A stretch of 62,672 nucleotides of DNA, counting the filler, from Globobulimina sp. (taxonomy: Eukaryota): the NCBI GenBank assembly GCA_003354225.1. It is 41 parts of 41 records of this genome, joined end to end, with 100 filler letters (N's around TTAATTAATTAA, not from the genome) between each part and the next. Parts side by side here need not be neighbours in the genome. Positions count along the whole stretch, not along the records: positions 1 to 1,433 come from PIVH01016770.1; 40 more parts are not named here. One strand, given 5' to 3'. The translations under genes and the position numbers were made by a program. This document shows positions 1 to 61,142 of this stretch, piece by piece. The notes under the pieces were generated by a model. The model searched no databases and was not told the DNA's origin. It was given only the letters and a program-made list of their open reading frames with translations. Each line of letters starts with the position of its first letter. The stretch's first letter is position 1.

Positions 1-1394
1 ACTCAGACCTCCGTCCTGGTTTTACAAGTGATTCAAATTCATCTAGCGATTCCTTGGAACATGCGAAATACTAAAACAAACACACACTATACATATGCAT
101 GTTATGATAGATAATACACATACCATACTGTCTGTATCCATCTTCATAAGTTCCCAGTCCGATCTCTCGAAGAAGTAATCAAGATATTCGTAGTACGCCT
201 TCAACATGGTAAGTTTGGCCATACCTAATATCCACACGCCGACCATTGTTGGTGTATTTACTTGGTAACTTTTTTTAACCAAATCGACTTCAAAATGATC
301 TGAGTCGATTTCTTCCAAATCGACAAACAAATTGCTTCTCACCTTTCGTTCTGCTTCAAATAATTCACAGAACGCAGTTGAAGTAAAGTTCTTCTTCCTT
401 TCCAATGTCTTACGTATAATATAAAGTCATATATTACTGTAAATATTAGCACGAAATCAAACAAACTTATCATAAGCCGAATTGCCTGCCAACTTCATCA
501 TCATGGCTTCCGTTTTCTTCGTTTCATCTATCAAGGCCTCAGCTCTCTTACTGGATATCATGTCGACAAATGATTCATATATACGTTTAGGTTTGAACTG
601 AACCACTTCATACACCTTTGTCACCTGAAGAAAATTTGCATATAATGGAAAATGTAAATCAACGCAAATATGCATACTTTAATTCCTTGCTTAAGATACC
701 AACTAACAAGAGGGGAAATAAGAACAATGTTTTTAGCCTGAAGCACACTGACCAAACTGCGGTGACCTTTGGTCATAATACCATTTTCCTCTGCATGTTC
801 TAATGATTCAGCAGACAAATCACGTCGATCCAATGTCATGTTTACAAAGAATGGACACATCTCAGAGAATTTTGTCTTCAATGACTGTGGAACCTAAAAT
901 AATGACAAAAAATTATACATCATCATCATGCCGTACATTGAACTCTTGCCTCTATATCAACACGAAGTAATCCAAACATTCGCCCATGTTCCACATGGTT
1001 AAGTAATTCTTGTTGACTTATTCCGCTCACATTGGACAAGGGCATACTAAACATATCATCCAAAAACGATCTAATGTCAGTCTGCTGTTTGCTGAGCATG
1101 TCCCATTGACATTCAAACATTATTTCTTCTTGCATTCCGATGTCACTGTAAAAATCGGTGGCTTTCTGATCCAGATCTTTTCTGTAGTCAACTTTAGACT
1201 GTTCTCCATTCTGAAACGCGGACATGATTGCAGACTTCCCAGCTCTGCAACCATCATGGTAATGCCATTTGCACCCATGAAAGTTGAAAACCTAATAAGA
1301 AACCACAGTTTATTTATATACTACCTTATCAATGCAAGACAAGTTTGGTTTACCCTTCTTTCTTTCATAAGCAATCCGTCCGGTCGGAATCCGA
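1..1394 (-). mobile_element. Polinton/Maverick(adintovirus)-type protein-primed DNA polymerase B, partial and multi-exon (exons 1394-1354, 1291-950, 893-678, 624-471, 413-124, 70-1)
   Basis: Spliced product reads GFRPDG..VFNFHGCKWH (Vsr-like insert), FGLLRVDIEVPQSLKTKFSEMCPFF, KLAGNSAYGKTLE (motif B), PTMVGVWILGMAKLTMLKAYY, MDTDSMYFA (motif C); introns of 53-62 nt restore the frame. Confidence 0.88.
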
Positions 1395-1433
1395 CTGTAA
1401 AGGTAGATTTATAATTTTTGCGGTTTCAATTCG

Positions 1434-7663: not shown

Positions 7664-8932
7664 TTTTCAGAAACTAAAGAATGTGCAGACAGTAAAAAGG
7701 AAGCATTTCATTTATATCATGGATCGATTAAATTAAATTCGCCGACTTCATTCTCGCTGGACACTACAAATTCCAGTGGTCAAACTGGAAGAGAGGGTTA
7801 TGATGACGATGGTGGTTATCGTTATTATCTGTTTACTGGCGTTGTTTATGGTAATTATGCGATAAATATGAATGACCGCAGTTTACAGAATAAAATATTG
7901 CGCTGGAAATTTCAGATTAATCATGGTTGTGGAGGTGTCATGATAGGGATTGATGGATCTGGTCGACGCCATGATTGGTATAGTTATCGCCATTCATATC
8001 AATCGTTTCATTTTTATGTATGTGGAGGGAGGTCAAAAATGTGTAAAAAGAAGAAATGGAATGGTGCCGAATACAGCAGCTATGGCCAGCAGTCATGGGC
8101 TTCGAAATGTATTGTTACAATGGAGTTAAACACTAAATATAGTGAATTGGTGTATTATTTGAAGAATGACGTTAAAGTTAAACTTCCAAAACATGTGGCG
8201 TTGAATGAACAAATTGAAGTACCTGTTACTAAGTGTTTGGGCGTTGCATTTAGTAATATTGAGAATGTCGAGTATAATGTTGTGGTATATTGTAGTATGT
8301 CGGTGAGAATTAAAAAATACCCACTACCGCCAGTGAAATTGATGTGTTTTGAGGTAAAGGATTTGAATGAAATTGAAGAAAAAAAAGGTTTGATTGAAAT
8401 TGAAGAAAAAAAGGATATCGATGTTATCAAAATCAATGATATGATGATTAAGTATAAAGAGATGAAGATATTAAATCAAAACTTAAGAGAACAAAATGTG
8501 TGGTTAAATAATCGATATACAGATTGTGAAAAGAAGTTATGGGAAAATAAAAACGAAATTTTCAAATTAAAGTCTGAATTGAAAGCATTGCAAATAAAAC
8601 ATGGCAAATTAAAGAGAGTCAGAAATCTGAATATTGGACATGCTGATTTTGAGGAATGGAGTTCTGACAATGTTTTGGATTGGATTTTGTCGTTGAAAAA
8701 TGGTGAATTTATGATATATGAAGATTCATTGAGAAAAGCTATTAAAAAAGAAGGAATTGAAGGAATTGATTTAGTGAATTTGGATAAAAATGATTTGGAT
8801 CGTTTGGGAATTAATAATTTTCGGTTAAAGAAGTATTTATTACAACAAATTCAAATATTGGCTGTTCAAAATCAAAATCATCAAAATCATCAAAACAATG
8901 ATGAAGGGGTTGGTAATACAGAGTATGTATAA
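7664..8932 (+). CDS. SPRY/B30.2-like + coiled-coil + C-terminal SAM domain protein, 5' partial
   Basis: GGVMIGI...IVTMELN...LGVAFSNI (SPRY-like); EWSSDNVLDWI...GIEGIDLVNLDKNDLDRLGI (SAM). Confidence 0.7.
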   Translation, partial: FSETKECADSKKEAFHLYHGSIKLNSPTSFSLDTTNSSGQTGREGYDDDGGYRYYLFTGVVYGNYAINMNDRSLQNKILRWKFQINHGCGGVMIGIDGSGRRHDWYSYRHSYQSFHFYVCGGRSKMCKKKKWNGAEYSSYGQQSWASKCIVTMELNTKYSELVYYLKNDVKVKLPKHVALNEQIEVPVTKCLGVAFSNIENVEYNVVVYCSMSVRIKKYPLPPVKLMCFEVKDLNEIEEKKGLIEIEEKKDIDVIKINDMMIKYKEMKILNQNLREQNVWLNNRYTDCEKKLWENKNEIFKLKSELKALQIKHGKLKRVRNLNIGHADFEEWSSDNVLDWILSLKNGEFMIYEDSLRKAIKKEGIEGIDLVNLDKNDLDRLGINNFRLKKYLLQQIQILAVQNQNHQNHQNNDEGVGNTEYV

Positions 8933-10626: not shown

Positions 10627-10838
10627 NNNNNNNNNNNNNNNNNNNNNNNNNNNNNNNNNNNNNNNNNNNNTTAATTAATTAANNNNNNNNNNNNNNNNNN
10701 NNNNNNNNNNNNNNNNNNNNNNNNNNGGTAGAATAGGTCAATATACCACATTACCCTCTCTTTTAGGAAAGTCTGAAGTCTTTATTTAAAGTCTTTGACT
10801 TTTCTTAGATTTTCATCAAAAACAAAAACTTCTCTCTT

Positions 10839-11414
10839 TCATCTTTGCCTCGTCCTCGGCAACCATGGGTTCCTTACTTGGGCCCAGTTCATCCATTGTT
10901 TGATTGGTACCCAATCAATGGTTGAATAAGTCATCATAATGGCCTCGATGGCCAATTCAATCAAATTCATACAATGGCGCATTTTCTGGCATTGCACGTA
11001 AATATTCATTGTACGCAAATATCTAATTTCGGGTATTGAACGCAAATATTTTCGATGTCGTTGAAGATTAAAACCAAACTGTGATCGATGCCAATTGTGT
11101 CTATATACGGGCGCAATGTGGCCATTCATTCCGTTGGCTTTGTACATTTATGATGCATTCGCTGTAGTGCATCTTTGTGTGCCCACTGATACCGTTCATC
11201 GGTCACTCGCTGCGCATGCACGTTTTGAGGCATTCGCTTTGCGGATTAAATTCGTATCATTGTCCATCGGGTGATATGGTTCATTGTTGTTTATCACATT
11301 GGTATTGGTCGCGGTAAGCGCCTGCTGCAAAGGCTATATTGTAATCCCTTCAGCTACTTCAGATACGGTATGCTGTCGTGATATCTTTGATAGTATCCAC
11401 AATCCCATGCACAT
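10839..11414 (-). pseudogene. Possible degraded ORF (about 190 codons) with three internal stops
   Basis: One frame from ATG 11414 to TGA 10839, interrupted only by TAG 11336-11334, TGA 11198-11196 and TAA 11150-11148. Confidence 0.3.
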
Positions 11415-12258
11415 TTTTATTATTATTTAATGCGAATTTGCGTAAACATTATTTTATCAATACATTATTTTATTCATTTTAATGGTTGTCGGGATAAAGG
11501 TATTTTTCCTTATTCATTCTCTTCTTTTTTTTGTTTTCTTTTTTTGAAGTAATATAATAATAAATAGTGAGATTGATAATGATTTGGAATAAGGAAAAGC
11601 TGCCATTGATCCATGCAAGCTTCAAATGATTAATTTAATTTTTATCCATATTTTTTCTCTCTCTATTTTTTAGCGATATCGCTCGTGTGTGGTTTTTGTG
11701 TGTTTATGTTTATTTTGCTTGGTTAGTTTTCATTTTTTTTATCGTAACAATACGTGATATTTCTGTAAAACTCAGAAAATATCCGTATGTTGCTACGTTT
11801 TAAAGTTGTTTAAAAATATTTTAAGTTTTGTCAAAAATTAAATAATTAGTTTTATTGCCAATGAATAAATGTCTGCTGCCACACTTATAAGGATTGCAAG
11901 GCCTTATGTGTCGTGAACAACAAAAACATTATGGACTAAAAATTATACGTTGTACATCGACGGCACATAACGCATTATCAACAGCTTCATACGTTAACAT
12001 TTTGTTATCCGCGTGTTGTAAGACATATGCCATTTATTAATATGGCATAGCTAACTCCTGCACCACCGTCAGCAGAGTTTTTCGTTATAAGTTAGGTTCT
12101 TATACGTGTGCTGAAAAGAAGTATGCGGAGCTTAAGTTTAGGTATATATAACAAAATANNNNNNNNNNNNNNNNNNNNNNNNNNNNNNNNNNNNNNNNNN
12201 NNTTAATTAATTAANNNNNNNNNNNNNNNNNNNNNNNNNNNNNNNNNNNNNNNNNNNN

Positions 12259-13689
12259 CTTTCTTTTATATCTTTTTTTTTTTTATTTATACACGATATA
12301 ATCACCTTTTTTTTATTATTATTTATGGCGCCGTTAATAATTACTTTCTTCTTTTTTCTTTCTTGTTTTATTATTTTTTTAATTGCAGGCTTTTCCATTA
12401 TTATTCGTCGATTCTTATAGTCGTTATTATTATTAATCTTATTGATATGCGATATTTTAATAATATCAACCAAAGGAAATGGATCCAATGACAATGACAA
12501 TGACAATGATAGGGATAATGATGAGATATATTTATTATGTGTGATATTATTCATATATTTTGTATAAACCGGCCATTTGTTGATTAGATATTGTTTTATA
12601 TTTTTATTTTGAATAAATTTAAATAGCAAACCATCGCAATCCTTAAAATTGAATATTTTCTCGTAAATTATCAATAAAAGAATAGAAATCTCAAACTCAT
12701 TAAATTGTTTCTCAATAAATAGCTTTTTAATGATTTGTAAGGTCTGCGGCGTGGTGTCAGTGTCATCAATGAGCAATGTATAAAATATGGAGAAATGAAT
12801 GAAATGATGAGAGGTAGATAACATTTGTAAAATTTTAAAATTATTATTTAATAAAAACTTGAGAAATGAGATTTGAGTTTTTTTTAAATACTTTTTATAT
12901 TTAAATAACTGAATAAATACTAATTTGATATAATAGTGGTCGTCATAAGGAGTGGGAGAGTTCGTTTGCGTAATAATTAGATTAATGCAGGCGTTATAAA
13001 ATTGTTTATTGCATATCTTCAATGCATTGGATATGAACCAATTGATATGGTTATTGTTTAATATTTTTTTATTGAATAAACAAATGGATAATAAGATGGG
13101 AAACGACAAGGACGAAGAATGATAATTATTATTATGAATGGTGATGAAATGCGTCAATATGCGTAGTGGATGAATGCTAGACAAATACGACAATATATTG
13201 GCCATTTCCATTATTTTTGTATAGTTACTGTTGCGAATATATTTACAAAATAGATACTGGTCGGAATGGCATAAGATGGTATATTGCGATAACTTAATTT
13301 CATCGTTTTTGCTGTATAGATAGGTTGGCAATATGCCGTCCAATATTTCCTCTTTCAGCGAAGACTCAATTTCGCTGCAAATGATGCCATAGATCACCAC
13401 GTCCGGCGACAAATCAATTCCTTTCTTTAATAAATGGCGGATTTTTAAGTATAAGTTTGTGCTCGATAATGATAACAAAATGTCATAAGAGTCTAAGCAG
13501 TTCCACCTCGACTCTTTATCCGTTTTGGCGGACAATAATATCTTATTATTGCTGGTTATCACATGCGGCGATAACGAATTGCTTATTATGTTAAAATAAC
13601 ACAAATCATTATTAAAATAATAACTAGACACACTTTGCAAAAATGGCAATATATTTTCATATTTTATTGAGATTTTGGTTAATTTTAAT
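12259..13689 (-). CDS. Hypothetical AT-rich helical protein, partial at both ends
   Basis: Frame open across the contig; (SL)n hexamer repeat and Lys-rich end; no family motif. Confidence 0.6.
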
Positions 13690-15385: not shown

Positions 15386-16520
15386 TCAAAACTGATGCAT
15401 TTCATCTTTTATTTTCCCATACGCTTTAAGGACAAGTTTATCTTTATAAAAATAGGCAGTCGCAAAACAATTGGTTTCCTCATCTGACTCAATAACACCC
15501 TCAAAAGTCCGATGTATAATACCATTTATTTTCTTATCACCATCATGATCGTGACCAGCAAAATATATTTTTACAATCTCTGAATATTTATCAATTATTA
15601 ACTTACATTGTTTATAGTCCCATGCCAATATTTCATACGGCGATTTCTGATTTGTTGATATTAATGGAACATGGCTGAAAATAAATACTTTATCCTTCTT
15701 TGTTTTTGCAATCTCCAATTGATTTGATAACCATTTTAATTGTTTAGTGCCAAAACCACCATTAAAAGCACTGTATCGTTGGACATCAAACTCTGTTTTA
15801 TTAGTTGCGGTCGGCGGTATATTTTTATTCTGAAATGGATTATGTTTATGTAATAAATCCGTGGCCGTATTAAAATATTTGTGTTTATTCTGACAATATT
15901 GATATCCATGAATAGATATTACAAAAGCATCTAAAATAATAAATAAAAAGCCATGATATGGATAAAAGGAATAATAATATTCATATTCATCATGTTCTTG
16001 GTTATAATTTGGACAAAATTGATAGTTTCGTAATTGTTTCCGATCGAAATTATACAGTTCGTGATTACCAATACAATTATGATAAAATGGATATTTTATA
16101 ATGTTATCTTTTTCTTCTTCTTTATTTTCCTTATTTTCTTCATTTTCTTTAATATTCATAGTTTGTAATAATTGTTTTGAATTAAATGGTTTAAATTTAC
16201 TAAATTCTATCATCATATTATTCATTGCTTGAACTGATGTTTTCTTTTGAACATTGCATAAATCGATGACGTCTCCAAGACATATCATTAATGATGGTCG
16301 AATCAGACATTCTGAAGCATCGTTCCATGTTTTAACTGCATTTTGCGTTAAAGTGAGTGATTGACGATATCTGATAAGAAATAATTTAATTAAAACATAG
16401 CATATATGTATATATATTAACCTTCGTGTTCGTGTTTTGGTGTAATTTTGTCCATCCTCTGCATCAGCATACTGTGGATCCGCAATTAATCCAATACTAA
16501 ACAAAGGAACTTGTTCCTCT
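15386..16520 (-). CDS. ADPRM: Mn-dependent ADP-ribose/CDP-alcohol diphosphatase (metallophosphoesterase); 51-nt in-frame intron 16371-16421
   Basis: [44 protein letters not shown] motifs; GTTAAT...ATCAG intron. Confidence 0.85.
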
Positions 16521-16754
16521 TGCTCCTTTATATCCGTTTTCACGGGCATATTTCCGGGCCCTTGATATTCTTCTGCAGCGGTACATGATGAGAGACTTGT
16601 ATATATCGGGATTATGCATGGCAAAAAAAGGCAGGACAAAAAGGTCGTCCCAGAAAATATGCCCATGATACGCTTCTCCATGAAGACCTCTGGCCGGTAT
16701 CGAAGCGTCTATATTGATATTGTGCCTGGGAGCACACGCCATAACATGATAGGA
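16521..16754 (-). CDS. Bacterial glycoside hydrolase family 65 (trehalose/kojibiose/maltose phosphorylase) internal fragment
   Basis: [17 protein letters not shown] and ARENGYKGA signatures; higher GC; ends abruptly at the ADPRM sequence. Confidence 0.85.
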
Positions 16755-16854: not shown

Positions 16855-18211
16855 AACAATGTCCCAATACATAATCAATAATTTGTGTCAATTTATGCCA
16901 CTCAACTTTAAAATTTATATCTTTAAAATGATTATTTAAATTAAACACAATGTGATTCAAATGAGACTGCCAAAATATTCTCTCTTCACTCACTTCATTG
17001 GCTGGCAATATTTCTATGATATATTTATTATTATTTGTTTTATCGTTCATCCAAATGCTATTCGTTATGGCATTGCCTATTAACATGGTGCAGCCTCTAT
17101 GCATTATTACAATATCTCTTGGATGGTAATGATCATTTAAATTGAATTCAAAACAAAATATTCTCTCACTTAAATACTTAGAATTACATTCCATTACATT
17201 TTTATACAAATTCCGCCACGTTTTACCGATCGAAATATCATTTTGACAAAAACCAATAAATTTCCATTGCGAAATATCACCAATTTCTATATCCAAATTA
17301 TTATTATTTTTGTATTCATTCAATGTTTTATATTTCCATCGAATGACATCGGAATTAATGTGAATATCAATCGAATCGATCCAATCATTGTAAAAAGTAA
17401 TCATTTCTGGAAATATGTGTTTCATATTCCATTTATGTGCACCTCTTACAATCTGTTTTATTGGTTGCAAATACGACTCATTTTCTTTATTAAATCCGCA
17501 AAATATTAATCTCTTATAACATTCACAGGGAATTCGTTCAAATAAATACGTAAAATGGTTCAAAACATATCTGGTAAATGGCTGAATAAATAAATGCTGC
17601 GATGTTAATAATTCGATTTGATTATCAATGAATAAATAAAATTTTGAATTATTTTTATCTTTTTTAAATGGTGACGATTTATATGGAATTGATAGAGAAT
17701 AATTATACAAATAAAATAAATGTGATAATGTTGAAACATACCATTTATTTAATTTTCTTTGATTTGTGTCGTTTGTATTCGATGAAGCGAGAATTAGATG
17801 ATTATCAATATCGGAATAATAACAATTTGCGGATTTGTATTGGTTTATAGTCCATACTGACGAATTAAACATATTTAAATACAGTAAAAACGATTCAATT
17901 TCCAAATTATTATCAGCAGATAATGAGAATGCATCCTCTTTATTGAAAACATAAAACTTTTGTTGATAAATACAAATGTCCTCAATATACGGACAATCAT
18001 TATTATATTATTCATAACTCCAATTTGTTGAATCTGTGCCAGTTTTAATGTGATCAATTTTTGGTTTATTGTCAATAATGTACTCTATTTGTGGGGAATC
18101 CAACGTTTCTGGTTTGCTGCAAAAGATATTGGAAAATCCACTTATTTCAAAAATAATGCTAATGATTATCAATTGTAGGGTCAAAATCATGCTCTGACAG
18201 GATTTCAACAA
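16855..18211 (-). CDS. Secreted or type II glycosyltransferase family 61-like protein with one in-frame TAA (18010-18008)
   Basis: N-terminal hydrophobic segment; C-terminal MLIGNAITNSIWM...IIEILP resembles the GT61 motif; ORFs 18008-18211 and 16799-17905 share a frame and are separated only by that stop. Confidence 0.5.
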
Positions 18212-39822: not shown

Positions 39823-40988
39823 TTACTAATTGGAGATTTTATAGCTTTCTGGAGGTTATCTATGCGATCTTGCAACTGTCGGAGTGCGTATATTGTATTT
39901 ATTTTGTACAAATTTAGGCGTTTTGGTGATTTAAATCGATAATTCACATTATTTGCAGTAAAAATACTATGTTTAATATGCGAAGTTGATTGATTTGATT
40001 TGTGCATAGTAAAAATGGTAAAAAGTATACAATGATCAGAAATGGAATACATTGAATCATCATTAGCCACACAGTTAATAATATAATTTTGATGATGCAA
40101 TATTAATTTATCAGATGCTAAATGCAGATCTAATATATTTCCTTTACAATGCGTAGGAATTCTATTATTATTTATAACAGAAATACGTTTCTCATCTATG
40201 AGGCGATCTAACCATGCAAACTCCAGTCGATCTGTGGCGTTATATTTGTTAAAATCAATACGCGAAAATATTTCATTATGTATATTAAAATCGCCACTAA
40301 TGATATATGATTTTATTTGTTGATTTGTCGGTGTCAATGTATGTTGTATCCATTTTTTTTGTTTATAATGCTGCAAAATATAATCCATAATATATTTTAA
40401 TATTTTTATATCAGAAACACCTGTTTTATTGCTCGGGGATCTGTAGTATGATGCAAATAATATAGTTTGTGTGGTATAAGAATTTGATTGTGGATGGATT
40501 GCAATCCATGTCGAGTAATGTCCATTTGCTTTGGTTAACAAATCAATATCAATAAAATTACCAATAATTTGTTGTTGTTGAGTCGTATCTATCTGAATAA
40601 TGTCAACATATTCTTCAAAGCCGTATTTAATGTATATCACATTTTTTAGGTACGGATCGTACATTGGAATACCATTTTTAGTATGAAAATATCCATCAAT
40701 TTCTGGAGGGATCAAAGGTGCAACATAACGTACAGAAACCTCTTGTAATGCAATGATAACAGGTTCCAATTCATTGATGATATCTTGTAACGAATCTAAT
40801 TTAAGTGTATTATATCCACCTTTTCCATTATTGATCAATAAACCATTAACATTTAAAGAAAACACCGATAAAGAAGTGTCATAATAATCTCTATTGATAT
40901 GTCGTAAAATATCGCAACTGTTAATAATATCTGGATGAACATTGTTATATTCTCTCTTTCTGTGATTAATCATCATCGTCGTTGTCAT
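39823..40988 (-). mobile_element. LINE ORF2 N-terminal APE-type endonuclease (EEP domain), 3' partial
   Basis: SLNVNGL, IALQE, SYYRSP, GDFNIH, PTH...ILDL, SDH motifs in the correct order. Confidence 0.85.
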
Positions 40989-41352
40989 CGTTGTTCATCA
41001 ATATTCATGGTATATTCATCCAAAATATAAATATAAAATAACATATAATTCAAAAGCATTGAAATCTGATAAATTAATAAGGAATAAATAGGTATAAAAC
41101 AAAAATAAAAATAAATATTATATATGATTTGGTTGCAAATAAATATGATAGAAATGATTTGGTTGAAAATAAAAATACAAAGTTTATGAACCAATTCAAA
41201 TGCTGAATAATCAAAAACAATTTTAAAATTGGCAGGGAGTCGAATGAGAGTANNNNNNNNNNNNNNNNNNNNNNNNNNNNNNNNNNNNNNNNNNNNTTAA
41301 TTAATTAANNNNNNNNNNNNNNNNNNNNNNNNNNNNNNNNNNNNNNNNNNNN

Positions 41353-59712: not shown

Positions 59713-61142
59713 TTGTGGTTGAAACGGTATTTCCATTTATTGCTATGACTCTCGCATATATTCAAAAGCTTATTGAGGTGGGATATTTTGTTGGCAGTGA
59801 GGATGATGTCGTCTGCGTACAGTGTGCAGGCAATGGGTTCATTGGGGTCAGGGGAAGCTGCGCCCAGTCCGGACTGTTGTAGTTCTTCAATTAAATCATT
59901 TAGAAATGCCGCATATAACACAGGCGAAAGGACGGAGCCCTGTAGGACGCCATTGTGGAGGAGGAATTTATTTGTGATGAATGGTAGGTCTCGTATGGCT
60001 GATTGGGAGTTGTCATAGATGGCTTTCAATGTTTTACAAAGGTTAAGTGGTATATTGAACTGTCTGTGTAATTTATAAAGGAGGCCTTTTCTCCACACAG
60101 TGTCGAACGCTTTACGGATATCCAACAGCGCAGAATAGAGCGGGACATTTCTCATTTTGGCAGTTTCTGCAATGAGGTTGATAGCGCCTATTTGCTCTGG
60201 CACACCGCGCTTTGACCTATTGCCACCTTGCAGGATGTGTAGATTTCTGCGGAACTTGTGGGCTATGCTCATTTCCCACAGGATCAGTCGTTCGTATGTT
60301 TTAAATATTATCGGCAAGAGGGTTATGGGTCTGTACTGGTTGGGGGTGTCGCCTGTTTTAGTCTTTAATATTGGTATTATGGACCCCAACCGCCAATAGT
60401 ATGGTATATAATATGTGGCATTCCATGTATTGAATAGGATGCACAGTAAGTTATTTATTTGGTATCCATTTGTTTTTAGGTGAATCGCTTTTATCCCATC
60501 ATAGCCCGGGGCACTATTTTGGTTGGCATAGGATACGGACATTTCAATGGATCGATATTTTATCTTTTTATGTTTATTCGAAGCGGGAGGGTCTTCGCTG
60601 TGTGCTTTCTCCTCCTCTTCTTCGGTTGATGTGCGTTCAGGCAGTAATCCCGGTGTTTGGTTTTGTATATCCTGTATGACATCGTTATCACTGTCCTGGT
60701 CACTCTCATGGTGTTCTATGTTGTATAGCTCATTAATTAACGGCTGGGTCGGCGGTATATAGTTGGGATCATAGTGGGGAGTTATTATGTCGTTCTCTCC
60801 GGAGTCATAATCCACTTGCTGTGCATCAACGTTTTCAAGTGGCGGTGGTATATTCAGGACAGCACTTTCCTGTGAGGCTGGTTTATGAGGGATGAACAAA
60901 AGGCCATTACGGCAATGTTCATGCAGTTTATCATTGAAAGTATTTATGTCGTTTAATTGCGGATTATTGGTTGGGTCATCAATTGGTCCATTTATTTCGC
61001 AGAAAAATTGGGAGAGCGCGGTATTTTTATCCATTATGGTATCTTTATATTTAAGGTGAGGTTCATCCAATATGAACTCTTTGTTTTTATTATGCATTTT
61101 GAAGGATTTCAGTTTATGAGAATGATCCAAGTTATTGAATCT
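59713..61142 (-). mobile_element. Non-LTR (LINE) retrotransposon reverse transcriptase, partial
   Basis: SAPGYDGI, YRPITLL, LLDIRKAFDTVWR, GVLQGSVLSP, LYADD; frame open across the contig. Confidence 0.93.

Follow-up and report, generated by a model that had tools for sequence, protein, structure and literature searches.

We analysed a window of 62,672 nucleotides (nt) of DNA from Globobulimina sp. (assembly GCA_003354225.1), the first 1433 nt of which (contig PIVH01016770.1) contain, on the minus strand, an internal piece of a gene for a protein-primed DNA polymerase that belongs to family B and is of Polinton/Maverick type. The piece covers ~370 of the expected 1100–1500 codons and holds five complete introns (53–62 nt) and the 3' end of a sixth. 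Its exons are interrupted about every 210–240 nt by short AT-rich introns, and the longest uninterrupted open reading frame (ORF) of the contig is 127 amino acids (aa). Judged from comparative sequence evidence, this is very probably a real nuclear gene that depends on the spliceosome and is under selection. We propose that a polymerase gene derived from a Polinton/Maverick would have been split by introns that the host spliceosome must remove, splicing itself being predicted from the sequence, and that at least four of the introns would predate the split from relatives with 56–64% protein identity. The lineage would in that case have resided for a long time in nuclear genomes that gain introns.

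The original prediction, made from the sequence alone, had joined four minus-strand ORFs (926–1291, 621–893, 457–678 and 43–426) through five introns. These ORFs, the five introns and an extra AG acceptor at 1396–1395 were all found, and the six exon translations obtained on removal of the introns are free of stops; the rare end types of two of the introns had gone unremarked. Read along the minus strand, the contig begins with the 3' end of the upstream intron (1395–1433), the contig stopping within this intron, which closes with the acceptor at 1396–1395. Exon 0 (1354–1394, 41 nt) contains the start of a Vsr-like insert with a PDG motif (PVDGF in the consensus of the alignment of relatives) and, like the sequence after it, is homologous to these proteins in their P(V)DG...FxFHGC segment. 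Intron 1 (1292–1353, GT-AG, 62 nt, phase 0) is followed by exon A (950–1291, 342 nt), which encodes the Vsr-like endonuclease insert (FHGCxWHxH ... ECxW ... FGxLxVDIE) as recognised by tblastn and by profile. Between intron 2 (894–949, GC-AG, 56 nt, phase 0) and intron 3 (625–677, GT-AG, 53 nt, phase 0) lies exon B (678–893, 216 nt), a polymerase segment (VPxxLxxKFSEMxP ... WYLxxG) with 37–44% identity to relatives. Exon C (471–624, 154 nt), 76% identical to the database protein P0001, ends with KLAGNSAY and the first base of the Gly codon of polymerase motif B. The remaining bases of this codon, then KTLE, open exon D (124–413, 290 nt) beyond intron 4 (414–470, AT-AC, 57 nt, phase 1), which has a U2-like /ATAAGT 5' end and, read in frame, two stops. 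Exon D runs to MDTDSM (polymerase motif C) and is separated by intron 5 (71–123, GT-AG, 53 nt, phase 0) from exon E (1–70, 70 nt, open at the contig end), whose YFAxS ... DEFESLVKP matches the stretch that follows DTDSxY in the relative P0004. The five complete introns thus comprise three GT-AG, one GC-AG and one AT-AC intron, four in phase 0 and one in phase 1, with a G+C content of 21–30% compared with 38–49% in the exons.

Linker analysis showed that the window is made up of 41 contigs ordered by length, from 1433 down to 1430 nt. The linkers consist of 44 N, TTAATTAATTAA and a further 44 N, the first at 1434–1533 and the others following every ~1532 nt; the 12-mer TTAATTAATTAA with flanking N runs occurs 40 times at a spacing of 1530–1533 nt, compared with 0.05 expected occurrences. 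The polymerase region is therefore one entire small contig of a fragmented assembly, with both ends inside the gene. As the 41 contigs strung together in the window are unrelated, the other 40 do not represent the genomic neighbourhood of the gene, and inferences drawn across linkers from seemingly neighbouring genes are unsafe. The contigs are AT-rich (25–38% G+C), many are a single long ORF in the standard code, and an uninterrupted ORF of at least 300 aa is present in 20 of the other 40. G+C at third codon positions (GC3) is 0.42 in the polymerase exons, inside the range of 0.23–0.47 for ORFs of the other contigs, a value compatible with long residence in the host, and also with a foreign origin. 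The introns had also been likened to host introns elsewhere in the window. The similarity in size stood, at about 50–80 nt at ORF junctions in a few contigs, as read by hand at five junctions only, an automated finder of ORF pairs being too noisy; these contigs are unrelated to the gene, however, and their intron density is far lower.

A phmmer search of 1.8 billion representative proteins with exon D returned 567 proteins at E ≤ 1e-3, of which P0001 was the best match at 56% identity. In a tblastn comparison of 150 of these 567 proteins with the contig, relatives of 1100–1700 aa aligned collinearly in three frames with E values of 1e-49 to 1e-37 (for example, P0025 at 1e-49 and P0024 at 2e-46), and all 223 tblastn matches in the window fell within 1–1433. 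Together with the mapping of exon junctions described below, these alignments show that the spliced product aligns contiguously with protein-primed polymerases. The Pfam family PF03175 (DNA_pol_B_2) was reached by five of 14 scanned relatives, and also by the polymerase ORF of metagenome locus L021; several scanned relatives carry N-terminal C2H2 fingers. A profile of 12 relatives gave no match in viral contigs, and exon A as a query gave none among longer proteins. One polymerase relative, P0017 (1163 aa), has a C-terminal NADAR domain.

Both polymerase motifs that fall within the contig are recognisable. Motif B is encoded as K-LAG-NSAY followed by the split Gly, with K881, N885 and G889 (P0024 numbering) conserved in 37 relatives. 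The predicted KxxxNSxYGK is thus present, but only after excision of segment 470–414 from its AT to its AC end; the unspliced sequence reads NSAYDK. The predicted MDTDS is present in the genomic sequence itself, MDTDSM closing exon D and Y opening exon E as motif C. Exonuclease motifs I–III, polymerase motif A and the TPR1 and TPR2 insertions fall outside the 1433-nt contig. Between residues 757 and 986 of P0024, 37 alignment columns are at least 90% conserved; 30 of them are retained in the contig, six are altered, and the remaining one is the split Gly. We obtained an AlphaFold model of P0024 from a 37-row alignment (pLDDT of 88, pTM of 0.80). The model best matched phi29 DNA polymerase (PDB 2PYJ, 2EX3 and 1XHX), with E values of 3e-12 to 1.5e-9 and target-normalised TM scores of 0.61–0.68 for the top nine chains, and other family B polymerases ranked next. 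Motifs B and C are common to the phage enzyme and the window gene. The phage enzyme, of about 570 aa, differs in having no Vsr insert, zinc-finger N-terminal region or introns, and identity in the structural alignment is 9–10%.

The suggestion that exon A encodes a Vsr-like insert was borne out by a profile of 13 sequences, with window exon A placed first and 12 relatives added: Vsr structures were the only significant matches (1ODG, 1VSR and 1CW0, E of 2.3e-6 to 2.8e-6). Exon A alone gave no Pfam match, and the Vsr family (PF03852) matched the L021 polymerase weakly, at 20.3 bits and under the cut-off. Ten metagenome loci (L057, L059, L063–L065, L068, L071–L073 and L078) have the Vsr-like segment, corresponding to P0024 residues ~625–720, upstream of the exonuclease part of the polymerase and not after it.

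The intron borders were tested against relatives without introns. Twelve long relatives were aligned and used to scan metagenomes, which yielded 309 relatives, and 80 loci were retained; exon translations were then compared with these mostly uninterrupted genes, counting alignments that came within three residues of the exon ends. Exons A and B were 0 nt apart in 27 of 29 intronless loci (30 and 36 nt in the other two), and exons B and C were 0 nt apart in all 43. Exons C and D were one codon apart in 31 of 34 loci, the other three being separated by 12 nt; the intervening codon specifies the Gly of KxxxNSxYG (G889), which is invariant in 37 aligned relatives and is split by the AT-AC intron. 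The coordinates of the original prediction thus held at the tested borders, where exons abut exactly, and the counts favour them over alternatives that look more canonical, leaving one intron as GC-AG and one as AT-AC. For intron 2, a GT-AG alternative at 943–894 would introduce two extra residues, contradicting 27 of 29 relatives. For intron 4, a GT-AG alternative at 462–409 would replace the invariant Gly and add one residue, and would be incompatible with the apparent read-through in P0001 described below.

Each segment is bounded by a recognised pair of ends and lies where homologues lacking introns are continuous, and on this sequence evidence they are assigned to the U2-type spliceosomal introns. 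Introns of the U12 type with AT-AC ends start with the consensus /ATATCC and contain a branch site resembling TCCTTAAC. We rejected this minor class, which is described in PMC1557818, for 470–414, which begins with /ATAAGTTTG and has no such branch motif. An intron with A at +1 and a terminal C shows a known compensating pair. U2-type AT-AC introns are documented, and in the accessible text of a survey of five model species U2-type GC-AG introns account for 0.4–0.9% and U2-type AT-AC introns for at most 0.008% of introns (PMC1557818). The AT-AC introns of SCN4A and SCN5A (type II; Sheth et al. 2006, PMC1557818), as far as that text describes them, have the same AT...AC ends and a major-type donor (/ATAAGT); the window intron differs in being predicted, in lying in a virus-derived gene and in its seeming conservation in a relative that is 56% identical. 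As to why a GC-AG intron should be paired with a conserved AT-AC intron, a permissive host spliceosome or a regulated, inefficient splicing are guesses. A family of introners was rejected as the source: none of 15 intron pairs was alike above shuffled sequences, no intron copies occurred elsewhere in the 62-kb window, and the introns are unlike each other and the rest of the searched sequence. A ciliate-type eliminated sequence was also rejected, given that the ends are spliceosomal pairs and not TA repeats and that the other contigs are read in the standard code.

Copies of the gene were represented by the Logan contigs of X1, the single sequencing run that holds the contig; two other runs, X2 and X3, yielded no pieces, a result likewise not used as evidence. 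Seventeen pieces fell into four identity classes, with seven at ≥99%, five at 95–99%, three at 90–95% and two at <90%; each position shows only two or three variants. A piece of 913 nt, ~97% identical, spans introns 3–5; its indels, of 1, 2 and 9 nt, are confined to intron 5, and it has no listed difference at 414–470. Alignment breaks off at 901 and 1295 in pieces diverged by 12–13% and at 453 in a further piece, positions that lie within introns or a few bases into them. The X1 contigs contained no joined, intron-less form and gave no cover at 1393–1433, observations that were not used given that contigs cannot prove absence. Forty of the 45 differences between copies were assessed. Exons hold 30 of these 40, with 20 falling on third codon positions (binomial P of 2e-4) and 19 being synonymous, compared with 19% expected (P of 2e-7). 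The third-position bias follows the own frame of each exon, also downstream of the AT-AC intron and its stops, in exons D and E, where five of seven differences are synonymous, with four of five in exon E in the other copy. The excess of third-position and synonymous differences in the spliced frames indicates that the copies diverged under selection at the protein level.

Similar borders appear in the most closely related proteins. P0001 is a protein of 202 aa from a 7.2-kb contig, annotated as a hypothetical protein; it was not located among metagenome contigs or genome contigs. At its NH2-terminus, unrelated residues ending in Q stand directly before VTKVY, at the border of intron 3; at the site of the AT-AC intron it reads Y-D-K, 15 unrelated residues and R-K-T-L-E; and at its COOH-terminus M-D-T-D-S-M-V is followed by unrelated residues, at the border of intron 5. 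At the second site, D is encoded by GAT or GAC and R by CGN, so that the intron must have A at +1 and end in C, and the AT-AC pair therefore seems to be conserved. P0001 also contains a 17-residue insert (residues ~140–156) between VGVWILG and LAKL that is absent from all other relatives and is probably a further intron, in frame, which gene calling translated as coding sequence. P0166 (79 aa, 64% identical) has VDIE followed by V, a GTN codon, and unrelated residues, from which we infer a GT donor where the window has the GC donor of intron 2. In 112 relatives the residue after DTDSx is Y; the exceptions P0001, P0003, P0009 and P0019 end within 2–13 residues and are among the matches most similar to the window. 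Four intron positions thus appear from the protein sequences to be common to the window and P0001 or P0166. P0001 and P0166 are unannotated fragments, and this sharing is no previously described feature of the closest relatives. Introns were also found elsewhere in the family: L049 has its own GT-AG intron of 87 nt (8844–8930) at KL|VGNS, and L060 has two GT-AG introns of about 200 nt (~628–824 and ~1842–2043). The different positions of these introns indicate that intron gain occurred in the polymerase family more than once. L049 contains no other core gene and no ORF of >131 aa in the 5.3 kb upstream.

The genomic context of the relatives points to the origin of the gene. We scanned 77 ORFs of at least 150 aa from nine long loci against Pfam. 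An rve integrase, mostly with a chromodomain, was present in all nine at E ≤ 1e-5 (six above the Pfam cut-off), a Pox_A32-type ATPase in four and Peptidase_C5, the adenoviral protease, in three. In these loci the relatives have uninterrupted polymerase ORFs of 1177–1840 aa. By tblastn, an integrase homologue was found in 27 of the 80 loci, and 12 of the 22 loci of at least 8 kb had at least one core gene and 10 had none. This adjacency to genes for an rve integrase, an A32-type ATPase and an adenoviral-type protease marks the polymerase as Polinton-type, and together with the contiguous alignment of the spliced product it supports the original reading of an intron-dense Polinton-type polymerase. 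Judged by its sequence relationships, the gene descends from a Polinton/Maverick (adintovirus-like) polymerase, the element context being known from relatives only. No tblastn match to the integrase, ATPase, protease or other core genes of the relatives was obtained in the other 40 window contigs. Two loci carry unusual further genes. The Polinton-like metagenome contig L051, which has a polymerase, an integrase and an A32-type ATPase, also encodes, at 16060–16650 and 16998–17492 on the minus strand, homologues of the TATA-binding protein (Pfam TBP, E of 1e-26) and of the PC4 coactivator (E of 4e-21), an unusual transcription cargo. In the Polinton-like contig L058, the product of 10781–13099 (773 aa) contains an endosialidase-chaperone domain (Peptidase_S74) of the kind found in phage tail fibres.

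A quick maximum-likelihood tree was constructed from 69 rows, comprising the window, 36 of the 80 loci (those with one clean match of at least 300 aa) and 32 database proteins. The window grouped with P0112 and P0024 (SH-aLRT of 94 and 97) among integrase-linked rows. Such rows lie on both sides of the midpoint, and with the tree unrooted the placement as nested is provisional.

Several observations weigh against the reading of a functional, spliced polymerase gene of the main organism. Run X1 is probably the source of the assembly, and the other copies are therefore not independent of it. The sharing of introns with P0001 and P0166 was read from protein sequences only. None of five exon translations taken singly matched a Pfam family at E ≤ 1, so that family membership rests on the relatives, and the 12-relative profile found no polymerase among PDB sequences. 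The end types of two introns out of five are rare, which would be unexpected in a well-spliced gene and could reflect poor splicing. R865 is replaced by A and D868 by L, at positions that are invariant or nearly so in 37 relatives, both changes being shared with P0001, and the end branch of the window in the tree is 0.99 compared with a median of 0.46; a possible consequence of these changes and the long branch is an altered or lost activity. Finally, intron density is far above that of the other window contigs, which leaves room for a different source organism.

Whether the gene is carried by an element or is a solitary gene kept by a host stands, in our judgement, at about even odds. The original prediction had likewise offered a long-resident lineage colonised by introns and a domesticated polymerase as alternatives, and either may hold, the contig ending within the gene on both sides. 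The polymerase–Vsr gene may have left its element and become a vertically inherited, low-copy nuclear gene with a selected host function in repair, defence or the replication of resident DNA, a view that we hold at somewhat less than an even chance. It would fit the contrast between six introns in 1.43 kb and the long uninterrupted ORFs of half of the other contigs, the intron positions apparently common at 56–64% protein identity, the purifying selection indicated by the synonymous excess, and the presence of just two or three variants per position in X1. The lineage-specific changes at two otherwise conserved positions and the intron-bearing L049, with its lack of other core genes and of long upstream ORFs, point the same way. 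Variants diverged by 6–13% within one run, on the other hand, suit a small repeat family better, unless several strains were sampled, and motifs B and C are retained, as an active element would require. To our knowledge, no domesticated protein-primed polymerase has been described, which also counts against such a history. A precedent for genes kept open after the loss of mobility is provided by the Maverick array of the wasp Glyptapanteles beside a bracovirus locus, which lacks terminal repeats (PMC2646287); this array, in the accessible text, consists of intact insect genes with no report of an intron-rich polymerase, unlike the window gene. In its most specific form, this history would make the gene the first Vsr-fused protein-primed polymerase taken from a Polinton-type virus by a eukaryotic host lineage, vertically inherited and intron-rich, with introns, including the conserved AT-AC intron in a catalytic motif, older than the split at 56–64% identity, and with a cellular role kept in repair, defence against related elements or the copying of resident linear DNA; we regard this as possible but rather doubtful.

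With equal standing, and again at less than an even chance, the gene may be part of a Polinton/Maverick lineage whose main way of life is that of a DNA transposon within the genome and which expresses its genes through host splicing. Given that such an element copies itself as DNA, introns gained in a master copy would be inherited by all of its daughters. Several diverged copies with the same intron places in one run would be explained in this way, as would the retention of motifs B and C under constraint at the protein level; the relatives are themselves element-borne, and intron gain has recurred in the polymerase family (L049 and L060). In dinoflagellates, Maverick-Polinton-like elements of full length are reported to contain introners (Gozashti et al. 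2025, PMC11957031, in its accessible text). Against an element-borne gene stand the intronless core genes of vertebrates and nematodes and the lack of introns in protist endogenous viruses, as described in the available portions of the sources (PMC8097293, 10.1101/2022.07.12.499685 and PMC10120064). A comparable intron density is unreported for such elements in the literature searched, to the extent of its accessible text, and the remaining 40 window contigs, a tiny sample of the assembly, yielded no further core gene of Polintons.

It is improbable that the contig comes from an intron-dense small eukaryote in the sample (prey, symbiont or contaminant), in which case it would be uninformative on the main organism. 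Its intron density unlike that of other contigs, its status as an unplaced 1.4-kb piece and the several identity levels among the run pieces would agree with such an origin; G+C, GC3, and intron size and composition, in contrast, are all within the range of the other contigs, and the depth of the matching Logan contigs, at about 7–9, is unremarkable, contigs giving no usable depth. A dead copy of a once intron-bearing gene, in which the GC and AT-AC ends would be splice-site mutations that block expression, is more improbable still. The non-canonical ends of two of five introns, the changes at D868 and R865 and the long end branch are what it would predict, but ~370 codons contain no stop or frameshift, the synonymous excess extends downstream of the AT-AC intron (five of seven in exons D and E), A at +1 and the last-base C are both apparently kept in P0001, and the ~97% copy has no listed difference at 414–470. 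That the five segments are not introns at all but random insertions or assembly errors in a pseudogene is scarcely credible, having nothing in its favour except that splicing is predicted, and being opposed by their location exactly where intronless relatives are continuous, by spliceosomal end pairs of recognised kinds and a lowered G+C content in all of them, by a third-position frame that shifts across them as splicing predicts, and by their dissimilarity from each other and from the rest of the window, with 0 of 15 pairs above shuffles.

The preferred reading of a spliced, selected Polinton-derived gene sets it apart from described systems. The statement that Polinton polymerases are usually intron-poor agrees with the accessible text of three sources that call Maverick/Polinton core genes intronless (PMC8097293, 10.1101/2022.07.12.499685 and PMC10120064): intact vertebrate Mavericks have intronless ORFs (PMC8097293), introns in nematode Mavericks mark host-derived cargo and not core genes (10.1101/2022.07.12.499685), and protist endogenous viruses "do not contain introns", which was the basis for the use of prokaryotic gene callers (PMC10120064). 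The window gene belongs to the same gene family as the vertebrate and nematode core genes, and its relatives share their element context, whereas it has six introns in 1.43 kb. The genes of dinoflagellate Maverick-Polinton-like elements resemble it in having spliceosomal introns, but these are copies of introner transposon families (PMC11957031, accessible text) and the five introns of the window are mutually unlike. Group I introns are described in some polinton-like viruses in the available part of another report (PMC12220804). A VSR domain occurs in a subgroup of the pPolB2 of Polintons, in molluscs and the marine nematode Trissonchulus latispiculum, according to the accessible text of Jeong et al. 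2023 (PMC10748475). These polymerases likewise combine a protein-primed family B enzyme with a Vsr-type domain, and the relatives of the window gene are rve-linked; they are uninterrupted ORFs of at least 900 aa, compared with 127 aa for the longest ORF of the window gene, and the two are likened here without placement in a clade. We found no report of an intron-dense Polinton polymerase in the titles and abstracts searched or in the accessible texts; Kapitonov & Jurka 2006 and Pritham et al. 2007 were outside this coverage, and an early mention of introns in invertebrate or fungal Polintons is possible.

Elsewhere in the window, translations read by eye showed that the contig-long ORFs at 59713–61142 and 39823–41252, both on the minus strand, resemble the reverse transcriptase of non-LTR retrotransposons (with a YADD stretch) together with an AP-type endonuclease. 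No Rfam family was matched anywhere in the window.

The gene bears on how elements of this family are counted. Surveys of Polintons and polinton-like viruses, in the accessible text of two of them, rely on long ORFs or on prokaryotic gene callers and assume that introns are absent (PMC10748475 and PMC10120064). The polymerase survey of Jeong et al. 2023, in the part available, required ORFs of at least 900 aa (PMC10748475), a filter by which the window gene, with a longest ORF of 127 aa, would be missed; a polymerase in exons of 40–340 nt is more generally invisible to both kinds of screen. If intron-split lineages are common, the number and host range of the elements and of genes derived from them would be underestimated. 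The introns may serve as both a clock and a marker, given that common positions would indicate long vertical residence in the nucleus and could separate domesticated from infectious copies. With an AT-AC intron in the codon of the invariant catalytic Gly, the protein would be active only if this rare intron is precisely removed.

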